Shown one piece after another: positions 25,499-49,990 of a stretch of DNA of 64,000 nt; position 1 is the stretch's first letter, and each line of letters begins with the position of its first letter. Below the pieces are notes generated by a model, which saw only the letters and a program-made list of their open reading frames with translations, did not search any database and had not been told where the DNA came from. Both the position numbers and the translations under genes were made by a program. This DNA comes from a candidate division FCPU426 bacterium (GTDB taxonomy: Bacteria > Oederibacteriota > Muellerivitia > Muellerivitales > Muellerivitaceae), in the NCBI GenBank assembly GCA_963738405.1, contig CAVTWJ010000009.1, positions 96,001 through 160,000 on the forward strand. Reading direction: 5' to 3'.

Positions 25499-25509
25499 TC
25501 TCCACTAAA

Positions 25510-25537
25510 ACCTTACGGCACAATGTTTTCGAATCAA
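25510..25537 (-). promoter_or_regulatory. Putative island-supplied promoter for the tRNA pair
   Basis: TTGATT-16 bp-TAAGGT, 12 nt before the tRNA 5' end. Confidence 0.45.
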
Positions 25538-29950: not shown

Positions 29951-30006
29951 ACCGCACCTGGCTTTCCGGAAAACTTCCGAGCAAAGCCTGGCGGGTATCC
30001 GCCAAG

Positions 30007-30210
30007 CTATTGCTTGCGGGTTTCCCAATCAGATTTGCGGCGCTTCCCAAGGTATTGGGCTTCTATAGCCCTCTGAATCAAGTCGGTCCTAGTTCTACCA
30101 GACCGCTTTTGCTCCGCCTCAAGAGCTGTAACTAAATCCGGCAAGAGACGAAGAATGATTCGAATTCCACCTTTGGGTTTAGGGCCGCGATTATTCTTCT
30201 GCATGGGCAT
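30007..30210 (-). CDS. Ribbon-helix-helix (CopG-like) protein
   Basis: IILRL...L....RSGRTRTDLIQRAI. Confidence 0.75.
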   Translation of the reverse strand: MPMQKNNRGPKPKGGIRIILRLLPDLVTALEAEQKRSGRTRTDLIQRAIEAQYLGKRRKSDWETRKQ

Positions 30211-30911: not shown

Positions 30912-32660
30912 CTAACTATTCAATTTCGATTCAAATTTCTTCCAACTATTATTAAATTTTGTTTTGTATTGATTCGATGAACTGTTCCAATATTTAGCGA
31001 AAAGGATATGTAGATTTCTTCGCATAAAGAATGTTGAAACGTCAGCGGCCTTTTGGCCGCTACCTCTATTTTTTCGATAAAAATTAATTGCTGAATTAAA
31101 TACGTATTTAATTGAATTGTTAAATGGCCCAAACATTGGATCGCCAGTGATCCATTTATTTCTAAAAGCTGTAATCGAATGATCTGAGCGAAGAGTAATT
31201 TTTAAATATTTCCAAACAAAATTCACAACTAACCATTTAGCATAAGCTCTTTCCGGGTAACCTGATGCGACGTAACCGACATTTCGCATTAAGAAGTATC
31301 GATTTAAGTAATAATTTGGATCTGTATTAGGGAATATAGAATCATAATATTCTTCAAAAAGACCTTCTTTTCCCTGCCTTACTAAAAGTGGGTCGAGGTC
31401 GCAAGCTGCAACCGCCTGTGCCAGTTCCTCTTTTTTTATTAAAGAAAAATGTCTACCAAGCACTTCACGTTGGGCTTCGCTTTTTGATTGGCGTTTTCTT
31501 ATATAGTGAAAGTCTAATTTTCTGAGTTGCCTTTCAATGGCGATTTGTTTTTGATCGTTTGATCTTAGGTCAGATGGTCGTATTTGGTTTTGCCAATTCG
31601 TTGCAGAAACTATGTTAGAAACGAGTGCTTCGAAATTACTTGGGACACCTTGAATGTCTCTTGGAACACGAATGACACGCACTATTACGCTGCCAATAGA
31701 AGAATTAGAAGCCACACGTGCTAAAGTTCTTGTTGTTTGTTGACCATTAATAATTTGTGGATTTGTAACACTTAAAATATCTTTCCCGTTTTGGCTCCTT
31801 TTTTCAGCCTGGTCGCAAATTATTGTTATCCCATTGTTGTAATACCAAAAATACTCTGGTTCTTCCTTTAACGTTTTCTCCATATTCCTATTAATTTCGG
31901 TGCTGCCCAGGAATCCCCGAACATTTCTCGCGAATATTCTGACGCCAGAATTTTGAAATATTTCTCCAACTGAATGCCCATTCATGGAGAAAACCCATGA
32001 TTCTATTTTTGTATTATTGTCATACCTATTTAAAGTGCCTTTTACTGCAACGCCGGAACCAGACTCCATCTCTAAATCTATATTCGGTACTGGTGGGGCC
32101 ACACCACTAATGTAATCGGATAATAAAAGTAAAACCTGTTTGCCTTGAACTATCATTAATGACGCATTTTCGGCGCTGTGTTTAACTTTATTAATGGCCT
32201 CTTCGCATAAATTGTTCGCGCATTTACCAGTAGTTAAATAATAAAGTTGTAATTTATATCCCTTTTTTAATTTCCGCCGCACTTCCCGCAATCTATTTTC
32301 CAGATTAGGATCAATTGTTTTTATGTAATTATTAAATTCTTCTTCTGTGCCAGTTAGGTTGTTTGCCAAATCAGCAAATTCGAAAACGTCAGCTCTTTTT
32401 TCGCTGCTTTTACTAAAATATTTTCGGTACTTGCCTTGAACGATAATTACTAAATTTAACTTTTCGTCAATTAAAATCGCATCGACGGCTTTATCATTTG
32501 TTTTTCCGGTTAATGCCTTAATAGCCGCGTCTTCATCTTCAGTTATAAAAGCTCTCAGAAACCATGTGTTGAATAAGTCGTTGAGAGATAATTTAGGGAA
32601 TTTTTCTTTAAAGGATTCCAATTCTTTTTTCAAATCATTTTCATTAAGTAAAGATTCCAC
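30912..32660 (-). CDS. AIPR-family (abortive infection phage resistance) protein
   Basis: FARNVRGFLG, FWYYNNGITII, PQIINGQQT. Confidence 0.88.
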   Translation of the reverse strand: MESLLNENDLKKELESFKEKFPKLSLNDLFNTWFLRAFITEDEDAAIKALTGKTNDKAVDAILIDEKLNLVIIVQGKYRKYFSKSSEKRADVFEFADLANNLTGTEEEFNNYIKTIDPNLENRLREVRRKLKKGYKLQLYYLTTGKCANNLCEEAINKVKHSAENASLMIVQGKQVLLLLSDYISGVAPPVPNIDLEMESGSGVAVKGTLNRYDNNTKIESWVFSMNGHSVGEIFQNSGVRIFARNVRGFLGSTEINRNMEKTLKEEPEYFWYYNNGITIICDQAEKRSQNGKDILSVTNPQIINGQQTTRTLARVASNSSIGSVIVRVIRVPRDIQGVPSNFEALVSNIVSATNWQNQIRPSDLRSNDQKQIAIERQLRKLDFHYIRKRQSKSEAQREVLGRHFSLIKKEELAQAVAACDLDPLLVRQGKEGLFEEYYDSIFPNTDPNYYLNRYFLMRNVGYVASGYPERAYAKWLVVNFVWKYLKITLRSDHSITAFRNKWITGDPMFGPFNNSIKYVFNSAINFYRKNRGSGQKAADVSTFFMRRNLHILFAKYWNSSSNQYKTKFNNSWKKFESKLNS

Positions 32661-32670
32661 AACATTCCTC

Positions 32671-35382
32671 CTAATTTGCGATTAAATATTTTAGTGATAA
32701 ATGTTGGAATGTGGTTGCGGCGTCAATTCCGGTTTCAGGAATAAGCAAATATGACCAAGGCTTACCCCCGATAGTAGCTTCATATTCACTTGCTCTTTTG
32801 CACCACAAAACAGCGGCACGCGTCTTTTCTTCTACGTCTTTGTTTTTTATCTCATCATCATCTTTGACTTCACAAACGTATTTGGCTGAATTAGATTCAA
32901 CTATGAAATCCGGCCTATATTGGCTTTCGCCTATTAAATAAATACGAATATCGTGATCGTTAGGCCGGAACCACTTTAATACATCGTTGGGGCCTTCCAA
33001 TATAATTGCAAAACGGCGTTCTGGATCTGAATCGAATTTTTGGTATTGGAAAAGGCATTTTTTAAAACCCGAAAAGACCATAGAACGGATTCGAATCCGG
33101 TCCATAACTGGTATATGAAAATCGACAGGATTTTCTCCGACCGTTCTCGCCATTCCATGACTACTTCGAAAAATATCATGAGCATCATGAACTTCCGCCT
33201 CGAATTGGGTAACGATTTGCTTAAAATGATCCTGCATTTGACCGTGAATCAAATCGACGAGTGGAGATTGGTAATAGGCAAGAACATTCCTGATTTCTTT
33301 TTCATCTTTCAAATAGCTACGCAGATGAACCACCATCTGGCCAGCTAATTTGTAAAGCAGGGCCTGATCCTGATCGTAATTGATATCGTTCTTGTCTATT
33401 AGTCCTCTAACAAGGTGATCCTCAAGCCGCACTTCCGGATGGGTGCCTGTGCCACCAGAAAGGCGTTCTTGATCATTGGTGCGAAGATGCTGAATAAGAA
33501 TATTTTCTTCAACCGGTTGGTAATGAACAGCTGATGGGTCCAGGTCGAAATCTTGAAAACCACTCTCCTTCACATCCTTAGCCGTGATATTAATTTTTGG
33601 AACAACAATAAAACGGTCTAAAAATAATTCAGATACCTTTGCTGCGATCTGTGTAATATCCACCCTAGATTGGGTTACACCAACTAACTCTTCCTGAGTA
33701 GGTCCTAACTGACTTTGGACCCATTGGACAATTTTACTCTGTGTTTCTTTTTCTTTTAATTGGCTTAACCTGTGTAAAGGGACGATTTCCTGAATAGCGG
33801 TCAAAGCAAAATCTGCAACTTTTCGTTCCTCTTCCGTTGAAAAAAGAGCAGGGACTTCATCTGCACCTGGATGAATAATACTTGGATCAGGCCGCCAAAG
33901 CGCTGTCACGGCGTTAGGGGCATCTACCACTTCTTGGCGTTGAATGGAAATATCTTTTCCAATAATGACACCAGTTCGGATAATCGAATCTGGTTTATGG
34001 GCTTCATCGATTATTTCTTGGAATCGGTCATGTGAGACGATAGTCAAACGATCAACGGCCACCACCCCGGTTCGACGCCCATAGGGAAGTCGCAAACCTC
34101 GCCCAATGCTCTGCTCAACTAAAGTTTTAGAATTAGCTGCCCGGAGTGGAACAATCGTATACAAATTAGTGACATCCCAACCTTCTTTGAGCATGTTCAC
34201 ATGGATTACGATTTCAACAGGATTAGTTAAACTTTCAACCGTTAGTAATTTTGCAACGATATGATCTTTTTCTTCTTTACCACGACCCTCACCCGAGTGG
34301 ACTGTGATAATTTTACCTTTATAACTACCTTCAAAAAAAGAATCGCTTTCCATCAAGGTTTGCAAATTTCCAGCATGTTCAATATCGGTTGCTACTACCA
34401 GCATAAAGGGTTTTTTACGGTCCACGCCCTTGTCTCGGGCATAAAGATCCAATTTAACCTTTGTATCTTCATGGACACGGATTCCATCCTCAAGTTTTAA
34501 AAGTTCTAATTCTTCTGGGTTATAACTATCAGTACTAAAATTTTCTCTAGTAGCCACGGCAGGTTCTTTAACAAAACCGTCCTTCATAGCTTCCGATAGG
34601 GGATAACTATAAATAACATTTTTAAATGCAACCTGGGTTCCACCGGTTTCAATATGCGGAGTTGCGGTTAGTTCCAAACCCAAAATCGGATTAAGTTCAT
34701 TTATTGCTTTGAGACCAGCAGCGGCTCTATAACGATGACTTTCATCCATTAATAAAACTAAATCGGGCAAATTACTTAGGTATTCAAAATAGCTCTGTCC
34801 AATGTATTCGCTGAGTCTTTTAATTCGAGGGGCATTTCCTGCACGAACTTCACTTGTAATTTTGCTGATATTGAAAATGTTGATATGAGGTTCACCGCTA
34901 TCCCACATTCGCAATTGTGAACGAGCTTCGTTTCGTACTCCGCGTCCTTGTTCATAGTTATCGCCTGTAATAATTTCGGGAGTATTCGTTACGAAATCGG
35001 CTATTCCAGTAAAAACATATTTAGGGGTGCCTGGTGTGAAATCGGAAATTAGTTTGTTGTAAATTGTTAGGTTAGGAGCCAACACAAAAAAGTGCCGACT
35101 GCGATGGGTTCGGTACAAATAGGCAATAAAGGCACCCATAAGCCGAGTTTTACCCACTCCGGTTGCTAGGGCAAAACAAAGTGATGGGAATTCTCGTTCA
35201 AAATCCTGCACAGTTGAATAGTTAGCCTTAATGGTCTCTAGCGTTGAAATCGAATTTTGCTCTTTATGAAAAGCTACCTTTTCATCTAAGTCGGCTAAAA
35301 TTTCTAGCGAACGTCGCTGTGGTTCCCTAAGTGATAGGCGTTGTGTGATATAGCTGATTTGTTGTGAGTTTAGTGGGTACAT
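32671..35382 (-). CDS. res: Type III restriction enzyme Res subunit
   Basis: ATGVGKT, DESH, LKEGWD, QSIGRGLR, PDF...EVK nuclease. Confidence 0.9.
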   Translation of the reverse strand: MYPLNSQQISYITQRLSLREPQRRSLEILADLDEKVAFHKEQNSISTLETIKANYSTVQDFEREFPSLCFALATGVGKTRLMGAFIAYLYRTHRSRHFFVLAPNLTIYNKLISDFTPGTPKYVFTGIADFVTNTPEIITGDNYEQGRGVRNEARSQLRMWDSGEPHINIFNISKITSEVRAGNAPRIKRLSEYIGQSYFEYLSNLPDLVLLMDESHRYRAAAGLKAINELNPILGLELTATPHIETGGTQVAFKNVIYSYPLSEAMKDGFVKEPAVATRENFSTDSYNPEELELLKLEDGIRVHEDTKVKLDLYARDKGVDRKKPFMLVVATDIEHAGNLQTLMESDSFFEGSYKGKIITVHSGEGRGKEEKDHIVAKLLTVESLTNPVEIVIHVNMLKEGWDVTNLYTIVPLRAANSKTLVEQSIGRGLRLPYGRRTGVVAVDRLTIVSHDRFQEIIDEAHKPDSIIRTGVIIGKDISIQRQEVVDAPNAVTALWRPDPSIIHPGADEVPALFSTEEERKVADFALTAIQEIVPLHRLSQLKEKETQSKIVQWVQSQLGPTQEELVGVTQSRVDITQIAAKVSELFLDRFIVVPKINITAKDVKESGFQDFDLDPSAVHYQPVEENILIQHLRTNDQERLSGGTGTHPEVRLEDHLVRGLIDKNDINYDQDQALLYKLAGQMVVHLRSYLKDEKEIRNVLAYYQSPLVDLIHGQMQDHFKQIVTQFEAEVHDAHDIFRSSHGMARTVGENPVDFHIPVMDRIRIRSMVFSGFKKCLFQYQKFDSDPERRFAIILEGPNDVLKWFRPNDHDIRIYLIGESQYRPDFIVESNSAKYVCEVKDDDEIKNKDVEEKTRAAVLWCKRASEYEATIGGKPWSYLLIPETGIDAATTFQHLSLKYLIAN

Positions 35383-35385
35383 TCG

Positions 35386-37074
35386 TTATCTCTTCTTTGA
35401 ATTTTGGGATTTATTTTTCTCGTTAAACAAATCAGATTGCCCGGTTGTAACGGATTTGGAAATTTTGTGATTATTTATGTTTTCTTCGATTTCTTCATTC
35501 TCGTCCTCTACCACCGGCAACTGGCTTACTGCCATGCTATAGTCATCTTTATCCCATTCCGCTTTATCCAAAACAGCTTTTGGGATTTTCTTTAGCGACA
35601 AATTGCCCCATTGGGTTAGGTCTTTTGCTCTCCAAGCACCGCAACAAATCAATAAACTGCGTTTAGAACCCACCTCATCACTAATCTTGACCAATTGTTC
35701 AACTGTTAAAGTTTGTGTCGTCACGTATATAAAGTCATTTTCGGTGGACTGACCGTGTCGCCAAAATTCAGTTTCGCTTGGGGAATAAGTAAAGCCTTCT
35801 AATTTGCAAACGGCTTCGGCTACCAACTCGGGATTGAATGTTGGATTAATAACCTCATTCCCCCAAGAATCCTTTTTAATCAGCGAAGGGGCAAGTCTGT
35901 AATATCTAAATCCACCGCCACCTTTCCAACCAATAGATTCGCTAATACCACCTTGGTCAGTCCCATCAATAACTTTTTTAAGTCGAGGAATGATATGGGT
36001 ATGGCAATGTTCTCCCAGTTCTATCATTATCCAACGACGACCCATTTTGTGCGCTACTGCCCCAGTGGTGCCTGAACCAGCAAATGAATCGAGAACAAAA
36101 TCGCCAGGGTTAGTAGAAATTTGTAAAATTCTTTGAATTAAACGTTCTGGTTTCGGTGTAGCGAAAACAGGCGCTGTTGGTAACAAAGTTGCAATTTCTG
36201 CACTCGCTTCTCTTGTTGTACCTGCATCGTCACCTAACCATATGCTTTCGGGAACTCTTCCGTCTTGATCTTCCAAATATATCTTTCTCAAAATCCTTGA
36301 TTCGCCATCTACAAAAGTGATTTCTCCAGTAGAAACCTTTTCATAAAACGTTTCCTTAGACCAGCGCCAACCTTTATCTGGGGGCGCAATTTTATTCCCG
36401 TTTGGTGTTTCAATGACGTATTTTAAATTTTCCCTAAGATTAGGGCTCCGGACATCACCGCTTCTCCACAAGCCGCGCGGATCACTATCAGGGTTTGAAT
36501 AATTAATGTTATTTTCTTCAGTCCTGGGCAGTTTATTACGAATAAATTTATCTGACTTTTGATAAACCAAAATGTAGTTGTGATGTAATGAAAGTTGTTT
36601 CGCGTCGTTTTTGCCTTGAATACTGTGTTGCCAAGTAATAGAACCGAAAAAATTATCCCTGCCGAACATTTCGTCGCATAGGATTTTTAAATAGTGGCAT
36701 TCATTATCGTCGATAATTATCCAAATACTTCCGTCTGGGCTTAACAAGTTTCTCAGTAATTCCAACCGATCCCGCATTAAACTTAACCAAATGGAATGTT
36801 CTACGCCGTCTTTGTAATGTTCAAATGCACTACCTGTATTGTAAGGTGGGTCAATGCAAACACATTTTATTTTTCCAGCGAACTCGTTTTCCAATGCCTT
36901 TAATCCTAATAGGTTGTCTCCGAAAATTAGTCGATTATCAAATTGATCAACATCTCGTCGAGTTTTAGAGTGAAATGAATTTGCGAAGTCGTGGATAAGA
37001 ACCCGCGGTTCAAACTTCGGCCTGTTATCTTTGCCAATCCAAGTAAGTTCAAGTTTTGTTTTTTGCCCGTTCAT
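35386..37074 (-). CDS. mod: Type III N6-adenine methyltransferase Mod
   Basis: DPPYNTG, TPKPE, DSFAGSGTT. Confidence 0.92.
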   Translation of the reverse strand: MNGQKTKLELTWIGKDNRPKFEPRVLIHDFANSFHSKTRRDVDQFDNRLIFGDNLLGLKALENEFAGKIKCVCIDPPYNTGSAFEHYKDGVEHSIWLSLMRDRLELLRNLLSPDGSIWIIIDDNECHYLKILCDEMFGRDNFFGSITWQHSIQGKNDAKQLSLHHNYILVYQKSDKFIRNKLPRTEENNINYSNPDSDPRGLWRSGDVRSPNLRENLKYVIETPNGNKIAPPDKGWRWSKETFYEKVSTGEITFVDGESRILRKIYLEDQDGRVPESIWLGDDAGTTREASAEIATLLPTAPVFATPKPERLIQRILQISTNPGDFVLDSFAGSGTTGAVAHKMGRRWIMIELGEHCHTHIIPRLKKVIDGTDQGGISESIGWKGGGGFRYYRLAPSLIKKDSWGNEVINPTFNPELVAEAVCKLEGFTYSPSETEFWRHGQSTENDFIYVTTQTLTVEQLVKISDEVGSKRSLLICCGAWRAKDLTQWGNLSLKKIPKAVLDKAEWDKDDYSMAVSQLPVVEDENEEIEENINNHKISKSVTTGQSDLFNEKNKSQNSKKR

Positions 37075-37117
37075 TTTCGATCCATTTTCGTAGATGTATT
37101 TCTAACGCTTAGTAAAC

Positions 37118-40003
37118 TTATTGAATTGTCCACCGAACGGTGAATAATTCACTTGTCTTCATTTGTCTTCCCATTCTCTCCTGAAGTTCTTGAACTAAAG
37201 ATTGGTGCTTCTCGTCCAATTCATCCTGGGCGGCAAAGATCTGAACTCGTTTTCTCTTCAATTGAACTTGTAACTCCGCGATTTTTTGTTGAATCTCAAC
37301 TTTTTCAGCTAGACTCGGCACTCGTAGGCTTTGTCGGCGGGCTTCTTTGATTTCGCGTTCAATGGAAGTCAACTCGAAATCCAGGCCTTGTTTTTGATCT
37401 TCGTGCCAAAGCTCCAGCTTGTCTAATTCGGTTTCAAAGTAGTTACGATTTCTTTCCTCCATCTGACTTAACAAAATACCGCGTTGATTTTCAGTTTGAG
37501 TTATCAGAATATCTGGGCAAGAGAGATTACATTGAGTCGAACTTAGAACATTAAGTCCTAACAAACGGCGACATTGGTCAGTATCTAACGGTTGGCCATC
37601 TTCTGTGATGCCAGCCCAAATTAAGTATTCCTCAAGTTGCAATGTATGTACTGCAACTTTAGAAAGACTTAACCAGCCAGATTTACCTAGCAAAGTTTGA
37701 ATAGCGGCTATATTTAAACGGGAACCGGTTAAATCAAGGGTTATATCTGCTGAAGGTAATTTACGAAGTTCCCATTGGTCCAATAAACGCTGGGCAAGAG
37801 GATGACCGACTCTAAAAAGGTAAGTATCTTCGACATTACGCCCTGTTCGATAAGGCCCCTCGGGTATTTCCTCACCAACGAATGGATTTTCTTTAAGAAA
37901 AAAATATTTACCTTCTGGTCCTTCTTTAAACTCTGCAAAATCACGTAATGACCAAGCAGCTAAATCCCAAAGCCAACGACTATAACGATCACGGCCTGCA
38001 ATAGCTAAATCGTCACTAAGACGCAATTTTTCTTGAACTTCGACATCGAAATTCTCTAATAATTGTTGGCGTGTTTGATCCAAACGTTCTTGAATGGGAA
38101 TTTCTAATTCCGTTCGTAGTTGTTCAAAGCTTTTGTCGATCTGTTCAGGTGTTCGACAGTGTTGATAAATATCAGCGATTCTTTTTTCGAAGTCTACGCC
38201 GCTTTCTAATGTACTTAGTACTTGGTCACTCGCGCCAAAAACACCTTCGAAAAGCTTGAACTTTTCGTCTAAAAGCTCAAATACGCGTCTATCGACTTCA
38301 TTATCGAGATTTACAAAATTAACCACTACGACGTCATGCTTTTGGCCATAACGATGACAGCGGCCAATTCTTTGTTCTATGCGTTGGGGATTCCATGGCA
38401 GGTCGTAATTAACGACTAAGTTACAAAATTGGAGGTTGATACCTTCTGCGGCTGCCTCTGTCGCAATCATAATCTGGCCATCTTCTCGGAAATAATCGAC
38501 TAAAGCTTGGCGTGTATCCGCTGTTTTTGAGCCACTGATACGAGAAGTGTTAGCATGTTTGGAAAGCCAAGCTTGATACAAAGCTTTTGCTTGGGGGCCG
38601 TTGTTACTGCCGTTGAAAAGTAATATTTTCCCATGCCATTGGCTTTTTTCGAGTAAACCCAATAGGTATTCTTGGGTTCTGGTAGATTCGGTAAAGATAA
38701 CTGCCTTTTCTGGTGCTCCCAACTCTCTTGCTTTATCAAAACCCTTCGCTAAAGCGGTCAATAAAGCTTCGCCTTTAGAATTACTGTTTATGCTTTCCGC
38801 AAGGGCCTGGAATTCACGTAATCGAGCTATTTCTAGGCGCATTTTTCGTTTTTCTTCTTCTGTGTAGACACGAACTGGTTTTGCTTCGCCGTCTTCTGTT
38901 TCCTGTTCCTCATCATCATCCACCCATTCATCTGGTTGGGCTTCACCGCCTTCATAACCTGGCGTGACCGCTTCGATGTCAAGTTCGGGTGGTGCTGGGG
39001 CAGAAGCTTGTTCTTCAAGTTTTTCCGCCAAATGGTGAAGTGTGCCGGAAATAGCAAAACTCGAGCTTGCTAATAGTTTTCGAACAATCATGGTCATCAG
39101 GGCTCGCTGACTTTTTGGCAAAGCAAAGAGCGTATCTTCTTGCAAGTAATCGGATATTAAATCATATAGTTCTTGTTCCTCTGGTTTAGGATGAAACCCT
39201 TCAGTTATAGACAAGCGGTTCGTATAACGAACGTATTCCAAAACCTGGCGTCTAAGTGTTCGTTGGCAAAGAGGTTTAAGTCTTTCCTTTAAAAGACGAA
39301 AAGAAGAGCCTTGAGTTAAGTTGGAAAATTGGGCTTTAAAAGCTTCTAAAGATCCAAACGCATGGTCGTCAACCAAGCTCACCAGCCCATAAAGTTCTAA
39401 TAGGGAATTTTGTAGTGGCGTAGCAGTTAGAAGGATTTTTGGGTGTTGTGCCAATGCTTCTTTGATTATGTTGGCGATTTTCGCAGTGGGTTTATATACA
39501 TTTCGCAAACGATGGGCTTCGTCAATTACTACCAAATCCCAAGAAGTCCCTTTTACGTAGGACGCTTTAGCTTTTGCGAAATGTAGGGAAGTAATAACCA
39601 CTCGATCTGTTTGGTCAAACGGATTAAAGCGCCCCTTTTCAGTTTCGATATTAAAAGTGGCTTTTTCTAATATAAGAGACTTTAAAAAAAACTTTTGTTC
39701 AAGTTCTTCCGCCCATTGTTTTCGAAGGCTAGCGGGGCAAATAACAAGGAGTCTTCGTTTGCGTTCAGCCCATTTTTGTGAAAGAAGGATGCCTGCTTCA
39801 ATGGTTTTTCCTAAACCCACTTCATCAGCGAGGATAGCCCCGCGAGAAAAAGGTGAACGGAAAGCAAAAAGAGCGGCTTCTACTTGATGGGGATTTAAAT
39901 CGACCTGGGCTTCGGACAAGGTTGCGGCTAATTTATCCATGCTGTCGCTAGGACATTTACGTGTAAGTTCGCTGGCAAGGTATTTAGCGTAGTAGTCGTT
40001 CAT
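37118..40003 (-). CDS. SNF2-family helicase (RapA/DrmD-like)
   Basis: ADEVGLGKT, DEAH, TATP, EGINLQ, QRIGR. Confidence 0.92.
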   Translation of the reverse strand: MNDYYAKYLASELTRKCPSDSMDKLAATLSEAQVDLNPHQVEAALFAFRSPFSRGAILADEVGLGKTIEAGILLSQKWAERKRRLLVICPASLRKQWAEELEQKFFLKSLILEKATFNIETEKGRFNPFDQTDRVVITSLHFAKAKASYVKGTSWDLVVIDEAHRLRNVYKPTAKIANIIKEALAQHPKILLTATPLQNSLLELYGLVSLVDDHAFGSLEAFKAQFSNLTQGSSFRLLKERLKPLCQRTLRRQVLEYVRYTNRLSITEGFHPKPEEQELYDLISDYLQEDTLFALPKSQRALMTMIVRKLLASSSFAISGTLHHLAEKLEEQASAPAPPELDIEAVTPGYEGGEAQPDEWVDDDEEQETEDGEAKPVRVYTEEEKRKMRLEIARLREFQALAESINSNSKGEALLTALAKGFDKARELGAPEKAVIFTESTRTQEYLLGLLEKSQWHGKILLFNGSNNGPQAKALYQAWLSKHANTSRISGSKTADTRQALVDYFREDGQIMIATEAAAEGINLQFCNLVVNYDLPWNPQRIEQRIGRCHRYGQKHDVVVVNFVNLDNEVDRRVFELLDEKFKLFEGVFGASDQVLSTLESGVDFEKRIADIYQHCRTPEQIDKSFEQLRTELEIPIQERLDQTRQQLLENFDVEVQEKLRLSDDLAIAGRDRYSRWLWDLAAWSLRDFAEFKEGPEGKYFFLKENPFVGEEIPEGPYRTGRNVEDTYLFRVGHPLAQRLLDQWELRKLPSADITLDLTGSRLNIAAIQTLLGKSGWLSLSKVAVHTLQLEEYLIWAGITEDGQPLDTDQCRRLLGLNVLSSTQCNLSCPDILITQTENQRGILLSQMEERNRNYFETELDKLELWHEDQKQGLDFELTSIEREIKEARRQSLRVPSLAEKVEIQQKIAELQVQLKRKRVQIFAAQDELDEKHQSLVQELQERMGRQMKTSELFTVRWTIQ

Positions 40004-40218: not shown

Positions 40219-40701
40219 TTATGCGAGAAGTCCGGCTTGGCGGAAGGAAAAGTGGCCTTCGTGAGTTACAATCAGGTGGTCATGAACCGTTAGCCCCATG
40301 GCCCTTGCAGCGGTGACGATTTGGCGGGTTAATTGCCTATCTCCTTCGGAAGCTTCAAGGCTTCCCCCTGGGTGGTTGTGAGAAAGAAGCAACCCTGAGG
40401 CGTTAAGCTCTAAAGCTTTCTTCAAGACTTCCCTGGGATAGACGGCGGTATGGTCAACGGTTCCATCTCCCATGAGTACGCAATCCAAAACATGGTTTCT
40501 GTGGTCAACGTACATGACTAAAAAGGACTCGTTGGCCTTCCCGCCTATGAAATTCCGGAAATATTCCGCCGCATCCGCAGGACCCGAAAGACATGGCCCC
40601 CTTTTGTAATCTGCCCTGGCTTCAGCCCAGCTCACCGGGGGAACCGTAGGGGGAACCTTGAACATTACGTCTAATTTCATCTCCAACTGTTTCTTTCTCA
40701 T
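40219..40701 (-). CDS. radC: RadC-like JAB-domain protein
   Basis: E.F, VYPREV, HNHPGG...S..D, DHLI. Confidence 0.9.
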   Translation of the reverse strand: MRKKQLEMKLDVMFKVPPTVPPVSWAEARADYKRGPCLSGPADAAEYFRNFIGGKANESFLVMYVDHRNHVLDCVLMGDGTVDHTAVYPREVLKKALELNASGLLLSHNHPGGSLEASEGDRQLTRQIVTAARAMGLTVHDHLIVTHEGHFSFRQAGLLA

Positions 40702-41088
40702 GTGCCCTGCTCCTTAGTTTGTTAGAGGAGAGAGCACCCTCCGGGTGCGCCCCCTCACAAACGCTTGGGGGCGCAAACGGAGCGATAAGAGGAGTTCGCT
40801 TATGGAAAACCGAATCCGGGGGGAAGTGCGTTGTTCGCTTTTAGCATTATTGGGGGAAACGTCAGGCCATCTGTGCGGACGGAATTACCGAGGAACGAGG
40901 TCCGGCCGGCCTGGCGTTTAGGCGCTGTCCGACCCCAACGGCGAAGCCGCCCCCGGTTCGGTTTTCGACAGGATTTACGTTGCTGGGGGTTCCGGGGTGA
41001 TATTCCAACCGGACTAGGGATGGGAATAGGGAAGGGTCGTTTTCCTTTCCTTGGGGGGCCGGGGGAAACGCCACCCGGACAATTGAAG

Positions 41089-41124
41089 TTGACGATAGAA
41101 ATCTAAAGAATACTTTTGTATAAT
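41089..41124 (+). promoter_or_regulatory. Promoter of the micropeptide operon
   Basis: TTGACG-16 bp-TACTTT, and TATAAT (41119-41124) 6 nt before ATG 41131. Confidence 0.6.
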
Positions 41125-41130
41125 CGTCGT

Positions 41131-41220
41131 ATGAATCATTTTAAAATGAATTTAAATATGGGCCCAAATCCACCTTCTCCTCCACCAGATGATGATGGTA
41201 TAGGAACTAGAGGTAAGTAA
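41131..41220 (+). CDS. Micropeptide A, MNHFKMNLNMGPNPPSPPPDDDGIGTRGK (29 aa)
   Basis: Manual translation; PxPPxDDDG motif; stop abuts the next ATG. Confidence 0.65.
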   Translation: MNHFKMNLNMGPNPPSPPPDDDGIGTRGK

Positions 41221-41361
41221 ATGAATAATATTGATGACCCGAAAATTCCAGAGGCGGAAAATAATGATGAACGTTCTGAAACCGTATCAAAATCGGAAGT
41301 GTCTGTTCCAGATCCGCCGGTAGATGAAGATGGAACAATTTGGAATTCCAAAGATGAATGA
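41221..41361 (+). CDS. Micropeptide B, MNNIDDPKIPEAENNDERSETVSKSEVSVPDPPVDEDGTIWNSKDE (46 aa)
   Basis: GAGGT RBS, TAA-ATG coupling, PDPPVDEDG. Confidence 0.7.
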   Translation: MNNIDDPKIPEAENNDERSETVSKSEVSVPDPPVDEDGTIWNSKDE

Positions 41362-41455
41362 TTTCCAAGAAGATCCTAAACCAGAACCAATTCCAGCGCC
41401 TGTTCCCGAACCGCCAGAGGATGAGGATGGAACTATGCAGGAATCCGAGAGATGA
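41354..41455 (+). CDS. Micropeptide C, MNDFQEDPKPEPIPAPVPEPPEDEDGTMQESER (33 aa)
   Basis: ATGAATGA overlap with B, PEPPEDEDG. Confidence 0.7.
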   Translation: MNDFQEDPKPEPIPAPVPEPPEDEDGTMQESER

Positions 41456-41592
41456 GTTTATTTGAACGGGACCCTAATTTAATTCTCCCGCCTGAACCAC
41501 CGCCTGATGATGATGGGATTCTAGGCGCAAGCCCTATTCAACTTCCAGATCCACCTCCAGATGAAGACGGATATTTCGAAAAGAGCTTATAA
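41452..41592 (+). CDS. Micropeptide D, MSLFERDPNLILPPEPPPDDDGILGASPIQLPDPPPDEDGYFEKSL (46 aa)
   Basis: ATGA overlap with C, AGGA RBS, two motif copies. Confidence 0.7.
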   Translation: MSLFERDPNLILPPEPPPDDDGILGASPIQLPDPPPDEDGYFEKSL

Positions 41593-42111
41593 CAAGCTGA
41601 AAATTAAACTAATCGTCAAAGATATAATTAGCCCTACCAAACTTGAATACGCTGATAAATTTATTAACATCAGTTTAGCATCGTTACTTTGAATGCTTTG
41701 TTTGATTCTATCCTGGTGATAAAAAGTTATATAACCCAACATGACTTTCAGGGAATTTTCGTTACCTTCTAGTGTTGTTTTTTCTAACCACATACTCGGA
41801 TTGCTTCCTAAGGACCCATATTTATAGCTATGTAAAGAGACAACAATGAGAATCAAACTTAAAACAAAAAATGGTATTAACGATACTAGAAAATAAAACA
41901 AGTTCGGATGAGTGGTTTTAACAACGAATGAGGCGGAAATTTCACCAATTAAAAGAGTCAAGTAACCGTTGAATAAAATAAAGGCTTTCTGCTCTATTTG
42001 TTTTTTTGTTTCGATAACATCGGTTAGTTTTTTTTCCGCCTGATTTAAAGCTTCTCTAACAATACTCATGTTTATATGTTTTAAGTTTTTGATAGCTTCT
42101 TTGGTTAACAC
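41587..42111 (-). CDS. 3-TM membrane protein, loosely resembling Pycsar-type TM effectors
   Basis: GGAGG RBS and GTG start; helix-KA-TM-TM...N..K-TM layout. Confidence 0.7.
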   Translation of the reverse strand: MLTKEAIKNLKHINMSIVREALNQAEKKLTDVIETKKQIEQKAFILFNGYLTLLIGEISASFVVKTTHPNLFYFLVSLIPFFVLSLILIVVSLHSYKYGSLGSNPSMWLEKTTLEGNENSLKVMLGYITFYHQDRIKQSIQSNDAKLMLINLSAYSSLVGLIISLTISLIFSLL

Positions 42112-42175
42112 GACCTCCCCCTGAACAAGGTCACTAAATGTTTAGGGTTATGAAGTTTGGTAGAGTTCAACTTGC

Positions 42176-42820
42176 TCATTTATCAGCACCATGGGCAAGT
42201 TTTTTTAACGCGACTGATAGATCAATTACTTTGTTGTTCACTTTTTTTAAATCGCCAATCAAATGATGAAAATCTTTATATTGGCGTTGAATGATTTGTG
42301 GTGATAGTCCTGGCGATTTGGATCTTTTGTGTTCAAACCAGACTCTGAATTTTGCTTGCCATTCAGTTAGATGTGGTCGTAAGGTGTCATTCAAAAGGGA
42401 AATTAATACTTTTAGTAGTTTTTTTGCATCACCATCATCCGAAAGTTCTTCCACTGGGATAGTAACAATTAGCTCTCTGATTTTTTTAAATAGCTCATAC
42501 CAGGAATTGTAAACTTCAACTATCAAATCATGTTTTTCATCAAATGGTAATGCGGCCTTTCTTGTAACAATTTCTGCCCAAGCTACATGAGCAATTCTGG
42601 AAACTTCCGAGGTTCGTTTAAGTTTAATTTTTGAAGTCCCCAAAGGAACTTCAATCTCTTCAATTTTCCAATGCGAATTACGGTTTAAAAAAAAGTATTT
42701 AATAATCCACATAAGGAAAATTGTTCCCGTGATTAGAAATATCAACGAATTATTTAAATGAAATTTGAATCCATCACTCAGTGTGTAGGAAATGTAAACC
42801 AAATCATCATTAGTATTCAT
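42176..42820 (-). CDS. Hypothetical protein with N-terminal TM helix
   Basis: LIFLITGTIFLMWIIKYFF; ATGA overlap with the Nmad2 gene. Confidence 0.75.
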   Translation of the reverse strand: MNTNDDLVYISYTLSDGFKFHLNNSLIFLITGTIFLMWIIKYFFLNRNSHWKIEEIEVPLGTSKIKLKRTSEVSRIAHVAWAEIVTRKAALPFDEKHDLIVEVYNSWYELFKKIRELIVTIPVEELSDDGDAKKLLKVLISLLNDTLRPHLTEWQAKFRVWFEHKRSKSPGLSPQIIQRQYKDFHHLIGDLKKVNNKVIDLSVALKKLAHGADK

Positions 42821-43461
42821 TTTATTTCCGAAATGGGAAAAACTTTAGCATTTTTGAACTCTAATGGCATTCCTTTAAAGCCCCATCCGTAACTCACGTC
42901 TATCCATTTGATTATACTCTCTAAGAGTTTTGATGAAGGTTTTCGGTGACCCCTGGCTGAACAACAAATATCTTCTTTTGAAGGACCAAACATTCTAAAA
43001 CGTTTCAAGATTTTAGGGGCGTTCTCGCCGAAATAGACGAATTTATTTGAAACTAAAACACGATTAACGTTAGTGTCGTGCGTAATGTTTTTTCTGTTCG
43101 GTTTCCCTTTCTCTTTACTATGGTGCGAATCTACTTGATGCCATCGATCATTTCTAAAAAAATAAATGTTATCACCATACAGTTGTTTTAAACTCCCATT
43201 TAATTTAGGTCTTTTTGAAAAAAATCTAGGATCACGCCAGTAAGTATTGAAATCAAAAGCTTCTGTGACTTGCATTAAATAAATAATCTTCCCTGCGAAC
43301 CCATACCTGGATTTTGCGCCTGTTCCAATAATCCAATCTCCAATTTGAGCACGTGCTCTTATTTGTGGTTTGCAGGTCGCAAGCGTACACCATCCATAAA
43401 AAGGATTAGGAGCAAATCCATAATCACGGGCAACAATGTAAGAAAAAATATTTAAGGGCAT
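42817..43461 (-). CDS. Nmad2-family (nucleotide modification associated domain 2) protein
   Basis: SYIVARDYGFAPNPFYGWCTLATCKPQIR...GDWIIG...GDNIY. Confidence 0.85.
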   Translation of the reverse strand: MPLNIFSYIVARDYGFAPNPFYGWCTLATCKPQIRARAQIGDWIIGTGAKSRYGFAGKIIYLMQVTEAFDFNTYWRDPRFFSKRPKLNGSLKQLYGDNIYFFRNDRWHQVDSHHSKEKGKPNRKNITHDTNVNRVLVSNKFVYFGENAPKILKRFRMFGPSKEDICCSARGHRKPSSKLLESIIKWIDVSYGWGFKGMPLEFKNAKVFPISEIK

Positions 43462-43937
43462 GTGTATCTCTTGATTTGCCATTCAGGATTTCTGTCATTC
43501 CCAGATGCTGGATCTTCCCACTTTTGAGAATTTGTGGAATTTAAAGCATCAACAATCTGTTGACTTTGCCAACCAACAATTGCTGAATCGCCTAACTTTT
43601 GTAGCATATCCGGAATATTTGCTTCAGTTGCACCCTGAGCATAAACACCAATAACTCGTTTACCTTGAGAGATGGCATATTCAATTTCCCAATTAACCCA
43701 CCAGCTAGTATGTGTGTCCTTATCAATTAGAACAACTAGAGCACTAGCCCAATCAATTCTTGGGGCTAATATATTAGTTTTGATGTATTCAGGGTCTTTT
43801 GCTTCGTTAGGTTTTTCGCTATTAATAGAACCATCTCGAACATCCATGCCAGCTTGGCCAATTAAATCTTTAAGCTTAGGTAAAAGCTCGTCATTTTCGT
43901 GTATGTGAGAGATAAATATATTTTTGATATCGGACAT
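43452..43937 (-). CDS. TIR domain protein, DUF1863/ThsB-like
   Basis: IFISH, LVVLI..TH.S.WVNWEIEYA...KRVIGV with catalytic Glu. Confidence 0.88.
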   Translation of the reverse strand: MSDIKNIFISHIHENDELLPKLKDLIGQAGMDVRDGSINSEKPNEAKDPEYIKTNILAPRIDWASALVVLIDKDTHTSWWVNWEIEYAISQGKRVIGVYAQGATEANIPDMLQKLGDSAIVGWQSQQIVDALNSTNSQKWEDPASGNDRNPEWQIKRYTCP

Positions 43938-44048: not shown

Positions 44049-45056
44049 TCAATGAGTTTTTATTACTTTGTTTGTGCGTTTCAACCAATGGAAAAAAAGG
44101 TTTTTAAATACTCCATTTGTACATTTTAAAATTGTTTTATTTGATAATTCTTGCCAACCTCGCCGTCTTGCCGCCTCAGCTGACAAAATGAATAAAATAT
44201 TTTTGTAAGCGATTGGTGCATTTGGCCAGTAGGTAATAGCCTCGTGTTTTCGCTTAGAAAGTTTCTCGCTAATAAATAGATCAATTTTTCTGCCTAACGC
44301 GAAAAATAAATATTCGGATTGTTTTTTATTAACGGAAATGTTATCTGAATTTCTAGGCGGCTTCCCTTTTTTACAAAAAACTTTATCGGCGAGGTACAAG
44401 TGGAGGCTATCGCTGATTTGATTGTAAGAACCTACTTTAAGTTTTAACCAGCCTGCCAATATTTCTTGAAGATAAGTAAATTGTATAAAATCATAAGGAA
44501 GACCGCGAAAAAGATCATTGCTCCTTAATACTTGCAACCATTCGAGTTTACCGTCTCTAACCTTTAATAAAGAAACAATATTACAAGGAACATCTTCATT
44601 TCTTGGAAGCCCTTTTACTTTAGGAAGGTCTAAATTGGAGTCCCAAATTTCTAAAACAACCTGTCGACTTATTGAATTAGATTTTAATGTTTGATAGGCG
44701 TTCTCGAGTTGATCTAGACCATTTCTTTTTCGGAGTCGAAAACCATATGCTCCGTATAAAGTTTTACCTGAGCCTGCAAAACTAGAAAGTTCTCGGTTCC
44801 AATAAGTTAAAAATTTAGAATCATTTCGGCCATTCATTGTCCAGATGACTTCGGCTAAAGCAAAAGCGATATTCAAAGTGGGTTTTCGAGAAAAAATCCA
44901 TCTTTGACGTGGATCTTCAATTACAAAGCCTGAATGAAGTATTTCCTTTGTTGGGCCAATTCTACTTGGGTGTCTTTGATATTTTTTATTATCATTGAAT
45001 TCGTTAAAGGCTTTTCGCCAAACAATATCAGCGGATTTCCCTTGGAATATTTTCAT
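44049..45056 (-). CDS. Thymidylate synthase-family (hydroxy)methyltransferase
   Basis: GAYGFR, SRQ, VPCN, RSND...GLPYD, SLHLY. Confidence 0.85.
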   Translation of the reverse strand: MKIFQGKSADIVWRKAFNEFNDNKKYQRHPSRIGPTKEILHSGFVIEDPRQRWIFSRKPTLNIAFALAEVIWTMNGRNDSKFLTYWNRELSSFAGSGKTLYGAYGFRLRKRNGLDQLENAYQTLKSNSISRQVVLEIWDSNLDLPKVKGLPRNEDVPCNIVSLLKVRDGKLEWLQVLRSNDLFRGLPYDFIQFTYLQEILAGWLKLKVGSYNQISDSLHLYLADKVFCKKGKPPRNSDNISVNKKQSEYLFFALGRKIDLFISEKLSKRKHEAITYWPNAPIAYKNILFILSAEAARRRGWQELSNKTILKCTNGVFKNLFFHWLKRTNKVIKTH

Positions 45057-45059
45057 TTA

Positions 45060-46055
45060 TCAAGCACCCTTTAATCCTTTTGAAATTAGATGATTGATTT
45101 TCCATTTAGGTGGATACCAAAAATGGATATTTTCTTTATTCATTTGATAGATCTGTTTAATTCTTTTACGGCCACTAAGTCCTTGGACTTCTGGATGTGC
45201 AACCCGAGAGTATTTATCAACTTCGCAAAATAAATTCTGACAATCAATATTCTTTAAAGGTCTACCCCATAGGGATTTAAAATTGATGTTAAGTCGCTCG
45301 AATTCTTCGTTTTGCACGTCAGTCACATAACGAATGATATCTGACTCGTTGTAATCATTTAAATCTTCAAAGCACTTACGGATACCATCAAGTGCACCTG
45401 GTCCAGGAACGACAAAATCATTTTCATCAAAATTAGTAATACAACTATAGTTAATATCAATCGTGAATTGATAAGCCAAAAAGTTACCAATGGTCGGGTA
45501 ACTTAATAAAATGGAAAATACTTCCTGCATTGATTTTGAGCGAGAAATATTATCAACGACACGCTCCTTCATTAAAAGTTCAATTAGTTTAAGATGATTT
45601 TTGTGTTTCTTAGAATAACCGAAATAACTTTTTCCTGAAGCCATGATATAAGCCCCGGAATATATTTTTTGATCTTCCTTTAGTGCCTTGGACAAAATCT
45701 TTTCATACATTTCGTATTTATAAGATGAAAAGCGAGGTTGTCCCAATTCCTTACAAAACAATTCCCAAGTACTGATTTTGTTAAATAATTTAAAAAGAAT
45801 AATCCTAAAAAAGATTTCTTTTGCATCAACCGGGCCTGAATAAATAACATTTTTAATTAAGTACTGACTAACTCTGTCAGAAGCACGATAGGCGTTAGTG
45901 AATTTATGTTTGGCGATAATTGGGTCGGAGGTCCATGGACTAGGTTCGTTATAAACTTTTTTAAAAAAAATCGACTGTCTTTCAGCCGCAAAAATCCAAT
46001 AAGTGTCAAATACCTTTGTGGGTTTAGGACGACTCTTAGTAGAAAAAGTAATCAT
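45060..46055 (-). CDS. 5-hmdU DNA kinase-like helical domain (aGPT-Pplase1 clade)
   Basis: YWIFAAERQ...PWT.DPI...KFTNAYRASDRVSQYLI, PGPGA, QNLFCE.DKY.R. Confidence 0.82.
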   Translation of the reverse strand: MITFSTKSRPKPTKVFDTYWIFAAERQSIFFKKVYNEPSPWTSDPIIAKHKFTNAYRASDRVSQYLIKNVIYSGPVDAKEIFFRIILFKLFNKISTWELFCKELGQPRFSSYKYEMYEKILSKALKEDQKIYSGAYIMASGKSYFGYSKKHKNHLKLIELLMKERVVDNISRSKSMQEVFSILLSYPTIGNFLAYQFTIDINYSCITNFDENDFVVPGPGALDGIRKCFEDLNDYNESDIIRYVTDVQNEEFERLNINFKSLWGRPLKNIDCQNLFCEVDKYSRVAHPEVQGLSGRKRIKQIYQMNKENIHFWYPPKWKINHLISKGLKGA

Positions 46056-46079
46056 TGTTTATGACCTGGAATTTGATGT

Positions 46080-46814
46080 TTACTTGGATGAATTAGTTAT
46101 TTGTTTAGTGAATGGAGTAGCTATCGGTAATGTTATAGAAGGCGTATTAGGCCGAGAAGATTTAGAACTTGTGATCGAATTAACTAATATTTCTGCTAAA
46201 ACTGTAACTGCAAAAACCAGCACGCCGAACCAGAAAAACTTTTTGATAAAATCGATCGTTTCTTCAACTTTAATCAATCGTTTATTTAATGCGGCAGGTG
46301 AAGCAACTTCACCTGCCATTCTCATTACATCTTCACTAGATATTTCCATCTGATCATATTTTTTGCCATCGTATAAATCATTTGTCTTTTGATCTAGCTT
46401 GGAAAACCAGATCAAAAATATTAACTCGCCACGCGTAAGAACAATATCTCCGCTTCCAGCGTTATAGACAGAAAATTTCAGTCTCCCCCTAAATCCTGGA
46501 TCAACGTGAAATCCAGAAACATTAACTAGGCCACGAAACTTTTTGTCGGCTTTGATTGAAATAAAGCCGATCATATCGGCTGGGATGGTTACGATCTCTT
46601 CTGTGAGAAGAAGAGCGAATTGGCCTGGGGGGATAGCAGTTTGCTTACCAATCTCGAGAAATTTCTTAACCTTATCCCCGGAAATATAGACTTCAGGTCC
46701 TAGGGTTAACTCGTATGCACCGCGTTTTATGTTTTTCGAATCAGAGCTACTAATTAGTTTCGGGAGGATTTTTTTAAGACTTTCAGAGCTTAAAAAGGAC
46801 ACTTTGGCTCCCAA
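46080..46814 (-). CDS. dCTP-deaminase/dUTPase-fold protein with C-terminal TM helix
   Basis: AYELTLG, FALLLTEE, HVDPGFRG; TM FFWFGVLVFAVTVLAEILV. Confidence 0.8.
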   Translation of the reverse strand: MGAKVSFLSSESLKKILPKLISSSDSKNIKRGAYELTLGPEVYISGDKVKKFLEIGKQTAIPPGQFALLLTEEIVTIPADMIGFISIKADKKFRGLVNVSGFHVDPGFRGRLKFSVYNAGSGDIVLTRGELIFLIWFSKLDQKTNDLYDGKKYDQMEISSEDVMRMAGEVASPAALNKRLIKVEETIDFIKKFFWFGVLVFAVTVLAEILVNSITSSKSSRPNTPSITLPIATPFTKQITNSSK

Positions 46815-47747: not shown

Positions 47748-47797
47748 TGAAGGGGGTGTGCCGAGGATCGCCGAAGGCAGCCGAGGCCAGGGGGAAG
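47748..47797. repeat. GC-rich ~50-bp intergenic repeat, copy 1 of 3
   Basis: CCGAGGATCGCCGAAGGCAGCCGAGGCCAGGGGGAAG. Confidence 0.85.
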
Positions 47798-48540: not shown

Positions 48541-48593
48541 TGAAGGGGGAGGTGGGCCGAGGATCACCGAAGGTAGCTGAGGCAAGGGGGAAG
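48541..48593. repeat. GC-rich intergenic repeat, copy 2
   Basis: CCGAGGATCACCGAAGGTAGCTGAGGCAAGGGGGAAG. Confidence 0.85.
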
Positions 48594-48824: not shown

Positions 48825-48860
48825 TTCATTCCTGATTTAGTGATATATCAGCGTATTGTT

Positions 48861-48903
48861 AGGGTGTGTTGAAATCACCAAAGGCAGCCGAGGACAGGGG
48901 GAA
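48861..48903. repeat. GC-rich intergenic repeat, copy 3 (more diverged)
   Basis: ATCACCAAAGGCAGCCGAGGACAGGGGGAA. Confidence 0.75.
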
Positions 48904-48924
48904 AGCGTTCCCTCCAATTCGCAG

Positions 48925-49908
48925 TTATTTTTCCAATTCGCGTTTAATCTCAGATAGGGAAAGCCGCTTACCTTGCCATTCCCGAATAAGTTTAACCTTT
49001 TCGACAGCCTCTAACGGATACAAGGTGTAACCCGATTCGGTATGGTCCGCCGGTTTCAAGAGCCCTTCTTTGGTCCAATGGCGAATAGTTGCGGTGCTTT
49101 CACGGGTCTTTCGGGCCAGGGCCCCGATCCGAAGCAGGGAAGTAGTATCCTGGGCTTCCTGAGCAGGGCTTTCCCCTTTTGCGGCTTTCAAGTAAATATC
49201 AAGTGACCGATCGATAATCCTGTACATGAGCGCTTCATAGTCTTCGATGCTCCCCCCCAACTGTGCTTTTTCTAACCCGTTTAAATAAGCCAAACGCTCA
49301 CGGGTACGGATGAAGGCCGGGGGATAACCTTTTTGCATTAAAAGCAGGTTCATCAAAAGCCGGGCTGTTCTGCCGTTACCATCGACAAATGGATGGATAC
49401 TCACCAGACGGTAATGCGCTTGAGCCGCCAACTCGGCAGGGTGTAGGTCGGTGGTCGATTTGAGCCAGGATGCGAATTGACTCATGAGTTGGGGAACTTT
49501 TTGGGCATTAGGAAGCACGACCGTGGAACCGGAAATTCTGACCATTAGGGTCCGGTACCTTCCGGCATTGGAATCGTCGATACCCTTAAGAATCATCCCA
49601 TGAAGTTCCAGGATCTCTTTTTCGCCTACAGGGTGCCTTGGACTGGAAACAACCTCTTTTAACCAATCCAAAGCCTTGGCATGGTTGGTGGCTTCCAAGT
49701 GTTCCCGCATCGTCCGGCCACCAACGGTAATCCCTTTTTCCAGGACAATAGCCGTTTCCTGGCGGGTGAGGGTATTGCCCTCAATCGCGTTGCTCGTATA
49801 AGTCAGCTCAACCCGGAACCATTCTTCCAGGTTCAGGATTAATGCGGGTTTAAGCGGACGTAAGGCGTCCAGGCGCTTCTTTTTTGTGTCGAGTTTGTTC
49901 CAGTTCAT
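48925..49908 (-). CDS. Fic-family AMPylase with C-terminal MerR-type HTH
   Basis: SNAIEGN inhibitory motif, HPFVDGNGRTAR, IGALAR...TIRHW..GLL...SGY. Confidence 0.9.
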   Translation of the reverse strand: MNWNKLDTKKKRLDALRPLKPALILNLEEWFRVELTYTSNAIEGNTLTRQETAIVLEKGITVGGRTMREHLEATNHAKALDWLKEVVSSPRHPVGEKEILELHGMILKGIDDSNAGRYRTLMVRISGSTVVLPNAQKVPQLMSQFASWLKSTTDLHPAELAAQAHYRLVSIHPFVDGNGRTARLLMNLLLMQKGYPPAFIRTRERLAYLNGLEKAQLGGSIEDYEALMYRIIDRSLDIYLKAAKGESPAQEAQDTTSLLRIGALARKTRESTATIRHWTKEGLLKPADHTESGYTLYPLEAVEKVKLIREWQGKRLSLSEIKRELEK

Positions 49909-49952: not shown

Positions 49953-49990
49953 TACTCAGTCATTGAGTATTTTTACTCAATGACTGAGTA
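49953..49990. repeat. Perfect 17-bp inverted repeat made of two TACTCA-N5-TGAGTA palindromes
   Basis: TACTCAGTCATTGAGTA-TTTT-TACTCAATGACTGAGTA. Confidence 0.9.

Follow-up and report, generated by a model that had tools for sequence, protein, structure and literature searches.

The window analysed here, a stretch of 64,000 nucleotides, carries at 41131–41592 of the plus strand an array of four very short open reading frames (ORF1 to ORF4), which meets the convergent gene of a membrane protein within a mobile island. The features of this array and of the surrounding island are as follows.

25249–25497: two tRNA-Ser genes, at the left end of the island
25534–26637: tyrosine integrase gene, which opens the island
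40219–40701: RadC (JAB domain) gene, in a block that differs in composition from the array
41096–41124, plus strand: promoter-like site, TAGAAA, a 17-nt spacer and TATAAT (41119–41124), with 10 of 12 matches
41131–41220, plus strand: ORF1, 29 residues, with motif copy 1 (PSPPPDDDG) at 41173–41199
41221–41361, plus strand: ORF2, 46 residues, with motif copy 2 (PDPPVDEDG) at 41308–41334
41354–41455, plus strand, +1 frame: ORF3, 33 residues, with motif copy 3 (PEPPEDEDG) at 41405–41431
41452–41592, plus strand: ORF4, 46 residues, with two motif copies, PEPPPDDDG at 41491–41517 and PDPPPDEDG at 41545–41571
41587–42111, minus strand: convergent membrane-protein gene, 174 residues, the candidate partner of the peptides
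42176–42820, minus strand: gene of a 214-residue single-TM protein with an N-terminal TM segment, assigned to no family
42817–43482, minus strand: Nmad2 gene
43452–43937, minus strand: gene of a ThsB-like TIR protein, overlapping the Nmad2 gene

The tRNA-Ser genes, the integrase gene and a TraG/TraD-like, coupling-protein-like gene in the left part of the island (25249–30028) delimit an integrated mobile island on its left side, and its right end lies somewhere before rpoD (50774–52606). The minus strand holds a defence cluster at 30912–40003 that comprises an AbiU/AIPR protein, a ResIII helicase with an endonuclease domain, an N6/N4 DNA methylase and a DrmD-like SNF2 helicase, the last of which matches the PADLOC DrmD with an E value of 2.5e-204. 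On the other side of the array, at 44049–46814 of the minus strand, this bacterial island contains a thymidylate-synthase-like gene, a 5-hmdU DNA kinase gene (E 2.5e-110) and a dCTP-deaminase-like gene, a set that is otherwise tied to phage thymidine hypermodification in the excerpts consulted of two papers (PMC8989533, PMC5889632). The right part of the island also has an intergenic 46-nt G+C-rich direct repeat in three copies (47752–47797, 48548–48593 and 48859–48904); relative to the first copy, the second and third show 87% and 63% identity. Two perfectly matched 17-nt arms, 4 nt apart, form an inverted repeat at 49953–49990, just upstream of a Fic-MerR fusion gene (48925–49908, minus strand), which is likely an operator.

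On the minus strand, a defence-type operon that includes the TIR and Nmad2 genes ends with the membrane-protein gene. Relatives of Nmad2 were found on 17 plasmids and on no phage, and a TIR gene lies directly upstream of the Nmad2 relative in all four of the loci inspected, so that TIR-Nmad2 looks like a conserved, apparently unnamed module. Genes for a nucleotide kinase, an NTP pyrophosphohydrolase, a uracil-DNA glycosylase or a radical SAM protein are present near the plasmid Nmad2 loci. The 214-residue protein matches only unnamed clusters in the protein atlas; its relative on an Aureispira plasmid, with 37% identity, follows four TIR-domain genes as the final gene, an arrangement that suggests a TIR-linked effector.

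The interval 41131–41592 of the plus strand is tiled by ATG-started ORFs of 29, 46, 33 and 46 residues. The ATG of ORF2 comes directly after the stop codon of ORF1 (TAAATG), ORF3 overlaps the stop of ORF2 (ATGAATGA) and ORF4 overlaps the stop of ORF3 (ATGA). ORF1, ORF2 and ORF4 share a common frame, and ORF3 is displaced to +1. A longer open reading of ORF3, of 43 residues, begins at 41324; its start was nevertheless set at 41354 because this choice restores the common N terminus MNDFQEDPK. The stop codon of ORF4 (TAA, 41590–41592) abuts that of the membrane-protein gene on the opposite strand, and both convergent stops lie within TTATAA at 41587–41592. The preliminary description of this DNA had reported four ORFs of 29–46 residues with the three junctions given above and a convergent membrane-protein gene with adjacent stops; when compared with the sequence and the ORF list, every detail of the coupled ORFs was correct, and the convergent arrangement was confirmed as well. 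ATG ORFs of at least 25 residues cover 100% of the plus strand of the interval and 0% of its minus strand, and a tiling of at least 95% arose in 1 of 5000 dinucleotide-preserving shuffles, for which the mean coverage was 36%. On the plus strand past the array there is no downstream gene, the sequence there being antisense to the membrane-protein gene. The four genes are probably translationally coupled. Two other ways of reading the interval were considered and rejected: the frames of the minus strand are cut by stops, with no ATG ORF of at least 25 residues, and an alternative genetic code, judged by eye, in which TGA is read as a residue, lengthens ORF2 by 6 codons only.

The promoter-like site upstream of ORF1 is positioned exactly where the G+C content drops from 0.61 (40900–41099) to 0.345 (41100–41299), and the array and the membrane-protein gene lie within one AT-rich block that begins at 41100. 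The TATAAT ends 6 nt before the ATG of ORF1, so this ORF would be leaderless if the promoter is used. An own TATAAT promoter had been proposed for the array at the outset; the element is indeed present, with TAGAAA 17 nt upstream, but such sites are no commoner in the region than in shuffled sequences (two found as compared with a shuffle mean of 2.7) and are thus not enriched. Shine-Dalgarno-like sequences precede ORF2 (AGAGG, 7 nt upstream) and ORF4 (AGGAA, 8 nt upstream), and there is none upstream of ORF1. Both strands of 40600–42300 lack terminator-like sites, as compared with a shuffle mean of 2.1, and the interval 40600–41700 has no Rfam match. The spacer between RadC and the array (40702–41130) has a G+C content of 0.56–0.61 and no credible ORF; it contains a 17-nt inverted repeat (40805–40821 and 40950–40966), and its minus strand folds better than 100 of 100 shuffles (z −3.77). 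It may be a leader of RadC or an insulator or terminator for the convergent operon.

The four peptides can be aligned end to end and are therefore paralogous over their whole length. They share an N-terminal module, M[NS]x[FI]..DP[KN], and the usual order of elements is M-[NS]-x-[FI], DP[KN], PEP, the motif P.PP.D[DE]DG and a short charged tail. Each motif is followed by a variable tail of 6–9 residues, and ORF4 comprises two such motif-plus-tail units; the pattern of a conserved motif and a variable tail, which had been noticed from the letters of the sequence, is evident in the alignment. The residue after the motif glycine is hydrophobic or threonine and is also conserved. ORF1 is the most divergent paralogue, lacks the DPK and looks degraded. 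In a six-frame scan of the 64 kb, the motif gave five matches, at 41173, 41308, 41405, 41491 and 41545, and the remainder of the sequence has no match to this pattern or to the looser P.[DE][DE]DG. At the level of DNA, the pattern of the motif has 4 matches in the window, as compared with 0.00 expected from 100 shuffles. The N-terminal module is likewise confined, in six frames of the window, to the starts of the four ORFs, where an ATG occupies the homologous position in each of the four units.

The codons of the paralogues indicate the level at which they have been conserved. For the seven conserved residues of the motif in its five copies, none of the 14 first and second codon positions varies and six of the seven third positions do, a count that cannot by itself tell the two strands apart because a mirror motif on the minus strand, PSSSxGG, shares its wobble positions with the plus frame. 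In all six pairs of paralogues the synonymous differences exceed the nonsynonymous ones, with pS values of 0.63–0.87, at which synonymous sites are saturated, and pN values of 0.31–0.47. Synonymous saturation, together with motif codons that vary almost only at third positions, identifies the units as old duplicates under peptide-level selection; the same two features argue that the array is neither a DNA repeat nor a broken gene for a repeat protein. The earlier proposal of selection at the level of the peptide is thus upheld.

A relic of this kind, i.e. a single longer gene for a repeat protein that a stop and two frameshifts have split, or an array that is otherwise nonfunctional, might have been suspected from the layout, as three of the ORFs are in one frame, only a TAA separates ORF1 from ORF2, ORF3 is at +1, ORF1 has a degraded appearance and the family is an orphan known from one contig. 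However, every unit has its own stop in addition to an ATG at the homologous position, the overlaps at the junctions are typical of coupled genes and the saturation of synonymous sites with intact motifs argues for a long upkeep of each copy; in addition, a profile search without restriction on length recovered no longer protein with the motif among 1.84 billion representatives. We therefore regard a relic as quite unlikely. The tiling, the alignment, the motif and the codon evidence together support the view, already taken in the preliminary description, of a compact, operon-like array, and the array probably consists of real, maintained micro-genes, the translation of which is presumed from their sequence.

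Searches for relatives of the peptides returned little other than the peptides themselves. None of the four has a match in Pfam (to E 10), NCBIfam, PADLOC or PHROGs. A profile built from the four peptides and compared with 1.84 billion representatives of any length identified one protein, which is identical to ORF2 (P0001); ORF2 is the sole member of the array present in that public collection of predicted proteins, from which ORF1, ORF3 and ORF4 are absent. A word-indexed search of 5.8 billion clusters returned only the identical sequence for ORF2, in a cluster with one member from one contig, and nothing for ORF4, for which the protein atlas also had no entry. When plasmids and phages were searched, blastn with 41100–42900 found nothing, tblastn with ORF2 gave chance-level matches only (E ≥ 2) and tblastn with ORF4 gave nothing at E ≤ 10, a search that the low-complexity filter probably blinded. 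The profile search of the PDB returned only a chance match of 11 residues in a P450. Genome contigs scanned with the pattern CCNGANCCNCCNNNNGATGANGAYGG gave at least 119 stretches with one pattern match each. Among the matches listed, two copies of a looser motif occur within 800 nt in 2 of 119 (L102 and L105) and three copies in none; the loci are mostly G+C-rich, and the genome of the window itself is not among them. These listed matches are only chance hits and argue neither for nor against relatives in other genomes. One of them, on a contig of an Erysipelotrichaceae metagenome-assembled genome (L034, about 10001–10026), falls within a small ORF that contains PEPPTDE[ND]GNPCPPPHHG as a two-copy repeat, a different protein rich in proline, acidic residues and histidine that is unrelated to the array peptides outside the short motif. 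As far as their sequences go, the four peptides are orphans in the collections searched.

The peptides are acidic and proline-rich and are predicted to be intrinsically disordered. The pI is 4.05 for three of them and 6.5 for ORF1, GRAVY values are negative for all four (−0.67 to −1.67), cysteine is absent and the tails are charged. None of the peptides contains a 19-residue window with a positive mean hydropathy. An AlphaFold2 model of ORF4, with the paralogues as the alignment, has a pTM of 0.16, and its secondary structure consists of a single four-residue helical turn.

The order of conserved and variable parts recalls the leader and core of a precursor peptide, and RiPP-like precursors were among the functions first suggested for the array. 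According to this explanation the peptides would be precursors of a RiPP or of a quorum signal, which are exported or modified, and the tail after D[DE]DG would be released as the core; the two motif-plus-tail units of ORF4 would suit such a scheme. Against it, the peptides have no cysteine and no hydrophobic or signal-like N-terminal segment of the kind expected of a secreted signal (Phr or AimP type). The variable core of a RiPP is usually rich in Cys, Ser or Thr, and the variable tails here are charged. The Pfam families of 22 ORFs of at least 90 residues between 28 and 55 kb include no maturation enzyme (YcaO, radical SAM, lanthipeptide synthetase, ATP-grasp or peptidase), no exporter and no TPR- or receptor-type family, and the sole candidate nearby is RadC, in its compositionally different block. 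The suggestion of RiPP-like precursors is thus unsupported, and we consider exported or modified precursors highly improbable.

Runs of PPP, DPP, PPD or PPE are present in every ORF, and these runs bear on a second alternative, in which the array is a regulatory device. The transcripts of the array and of the membrane-protein operon would be mutually antisense, the former reaching from the promoter of the array into the 3' end of the operon and the latter passing through the array, translation of the proline-rich ORFs would set the extent or stability of the antisense RNA, and the peptides themselves would be secondary. Such a device would be in keeping with convergent units that have adjacent stops, with the lack of terminator-like sites around them and with a plus strand that is free of genes downstream. 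That same lack of a regulated gene on the same strand, however, separates the array from leaders and attenuators, as there is nothing to attenuate, and the conservation of D[DE]DG, the N-terminal module and the residue after the glycine is unneeded for a mere proline pause. Four diverged copies under selection at the peptide level also exceed the needs of an antisense promoter. A mainly regulatory device is for these reasons unlikely.

The neighbouring membrane protein has two strong hydrophobic segments and a weaker one, and its model is all-helical (pLDDT 72). Pfam, NCBIfam, PADLOC and PHROGs assign it to no family, and a fold search with the model gave no PDB match at E ≤ 0.001. Among 5.8 billion clusters it has two relatives only, P0003 (69% identity) and P0004 (41%). 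Rarity is therefore common to both sides of the convergent pair, the peptides matching only themselves and the membrane protein having two relatives. The N-terminal 44 residues of the membrane protein include 9 lysines and arginines and 6 aspartates and glutamates.

When ORF4 was co-folded with the membrane protein, the median score was 0.34 (0.39, 0.11 and 0.34 in the individual runs), as compared with 0.00 for the best of three controls; contacts agreed in at least 64% between runs, and the pLDDT of the partner was at least 50. Of 157 solved complexes, 116 reached the mark applied to these scores, as did 2 of 215 mismatched pairs; with values of 0.60 or less, 18 of the solved complexes and both of the passing mismatches did so, counts that hold only roughly here because the co-folds were built on custom alignments (A1 for ORF4 and A2 for the membrane protein). 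A pass of this grade is more often wrong than right unless the pairing is likely beforehand. The co-fold thus lends weak support to a partnership of the peptides with the membrane protein, which the preliminary description had called a three-TM protein and had put forward as a possible partner. Against such a partnership, the two are adjacent but convergent and so not co-transcribed. Toxin-antitoxin pairs are usually co-transcribed. Evidence against a conserved association with other genes of the island comes from plasmids, where four loci with relatives of the Nmad2/TIR pair and two with relatives of the 214-residue gene all lack motif peptides. It follows that the TIR-Nmad2 module does not regularly include the peptides.

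The best reading of the array, although one that we hold only tentatively, is that it encodes disordered ligands in the cytoplasm, which bind the membrane protein of the adjacent gene and thereby restrain it, with a supply that is tied to the translation of proline runs. The products, acidic and proline-rich micro-proteins of 29–46 residues that are predicted to be disordered, would remain in the cytoplasm. Each has a short linear motif, in one copy or two, made up of a proline stretch, D[DE]DG and a hydrophobic or threonine residue, and together they would form a set of related ligands for the lysine-rich cytoplasmic parts of the helical membrane protein, holding it in check or tuning it. Because the membrane protein is the product of the last gene of the TIR-Nmad2 operon, the peptides would then resemble a labile antitoxin or immunity factor. 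Proline runs pause ribosomes in the absence of elongation factor P, and the runs in the array (DPPP, PPPD and PPE) would make the supply of peptide depend on this factor and on ongoing translation. A more specific version, which we consider very unlikely, is a translation-gated safety catch: short-lived peptides made only during healthy translation of proline runs would jointly occupy the membrane effector of the TIR operon, and when infection cuts translation the peptides would vanish and the effector would fire. In a bolder variant, the acidic D[DE]DG sites may be acceptor substrates of the neighbouring TIR enzyme, giving rise to a peptide-linked signal.

The coding evidence is identical for another explanation, in which the micro-genes encode real small proteins with a different target. 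This could be, for example, a DNA-binding protein or some other basic protein that belongs to an invading phage, to the host or to the recipient of a transferred island, and the acidic peptides would serve as its decoys or inhibitors. The peptides are strongly acidic and unfolded, the island has an integrase, a coupling-protein-like gene and several defence systems, and the convergent orientation with a possible promoter of its own suggests that the array is an independent unit, all of which would be compatible with this explanation. It is weakened by the lack of similarity to the defence and anti-defence families of PADLOC, PHROGs, Pfam and NCBIfam, by searches of plasmids and phages that found no relatives, by the lack of a candidate target, and by the co-fold signal, which, weak as it is, points to the neighbouring membrane protein. 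We consider a different target unlikely.

Genes of this size are routinely missed, and of these four only ORF2 is represented among about 15 billion predicted proteins. Should the peptides keep a membrane effector in check, defence islands would gain a layer of control that is multi-copy, motif-based and dependent on translation, and the array would offer a way into the study of an uncharacterised membrane protein and of the adjoining conserved TIR-Nmad2 module. If the array is only an oddity of one lineage, its value is limited, and it would still be a clean example of how the comparison of paralogues alone can reveal selection on unannotated micro-ORFs.

The array was also compared with other known classes, one feature at a time. 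Type I toxins are hydrophobic peptides that span the membrane, a feature at odds with the negative GRAVY values of all four products. In the calcium-binding loop DxDxDG, aspartates stand at positions −5, −3 and −1 before the glycine; the array motif has only D-x-D-G, and position −5 is proline in all five copies. The C-terminal tail of SSB, DDDIPF-COOH, is an acidic run that ends in Pro-Phe, whereas the acidic runs of the array peptides are internal and followed by glycine, and none of the four has PF at its C terminus. For every class tested, the array lacks one or more defining features, and it is therefore filed under none of them. A small protein of Escherichia coli, YnaL (57 residues), contains PDPPPDE and PEPIP in the sequence printed in the excerpt consulted of its source (PMC6001520). 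These strings also occur in ORF4 and ORF3, respectively, a low-complexity likeness in proline and acidic residues that is a string match alone, and YnaL, as printed there, has a hydrophobic N terminus and a basic C terminus, unlike the array peptides.

Apart from YnaL, the closest parallels are of three kinds. (i) Labile, disordered antitoxins of type II and similar immunity proteins, which neutralise a toxic protein encoded beside them, are, like the array peptides, small, acidic and unfolded, and the array is placed beside a rare membrane protein of a defence-type operon on a mobile island. It differs from type II antitoxins in being convergent rather than co-transcribed, in having four paralogues instead of one and in lacking a DNA-binding domain, and its peptides bear no sequence relation to any antitoxin family. 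(ii) The leader of the Salmonella mgtCBR operon contains mgtP, an ORF rich in proline codons that senses the translation of proline runs. The array resembles such leader ORFs in consisting of very short reading frames, the decoding of which is expected to depend on proline tRNA and elongation factor P; it differs in having no downstream gene on the same strand and in possessing a conserved acidic motif, an N-terminal module and four coupled copies. (iii) The staphylococcal psm-alpha locus consists of several very short paralogous genes in a row and encodes peptides that are amphipathic, helical and membrane-active. The array shares with it the tandem arrangement of paralogous micro-genes, and its own peptides are instead acidic, proline-rich and, as predicted, unfolded.
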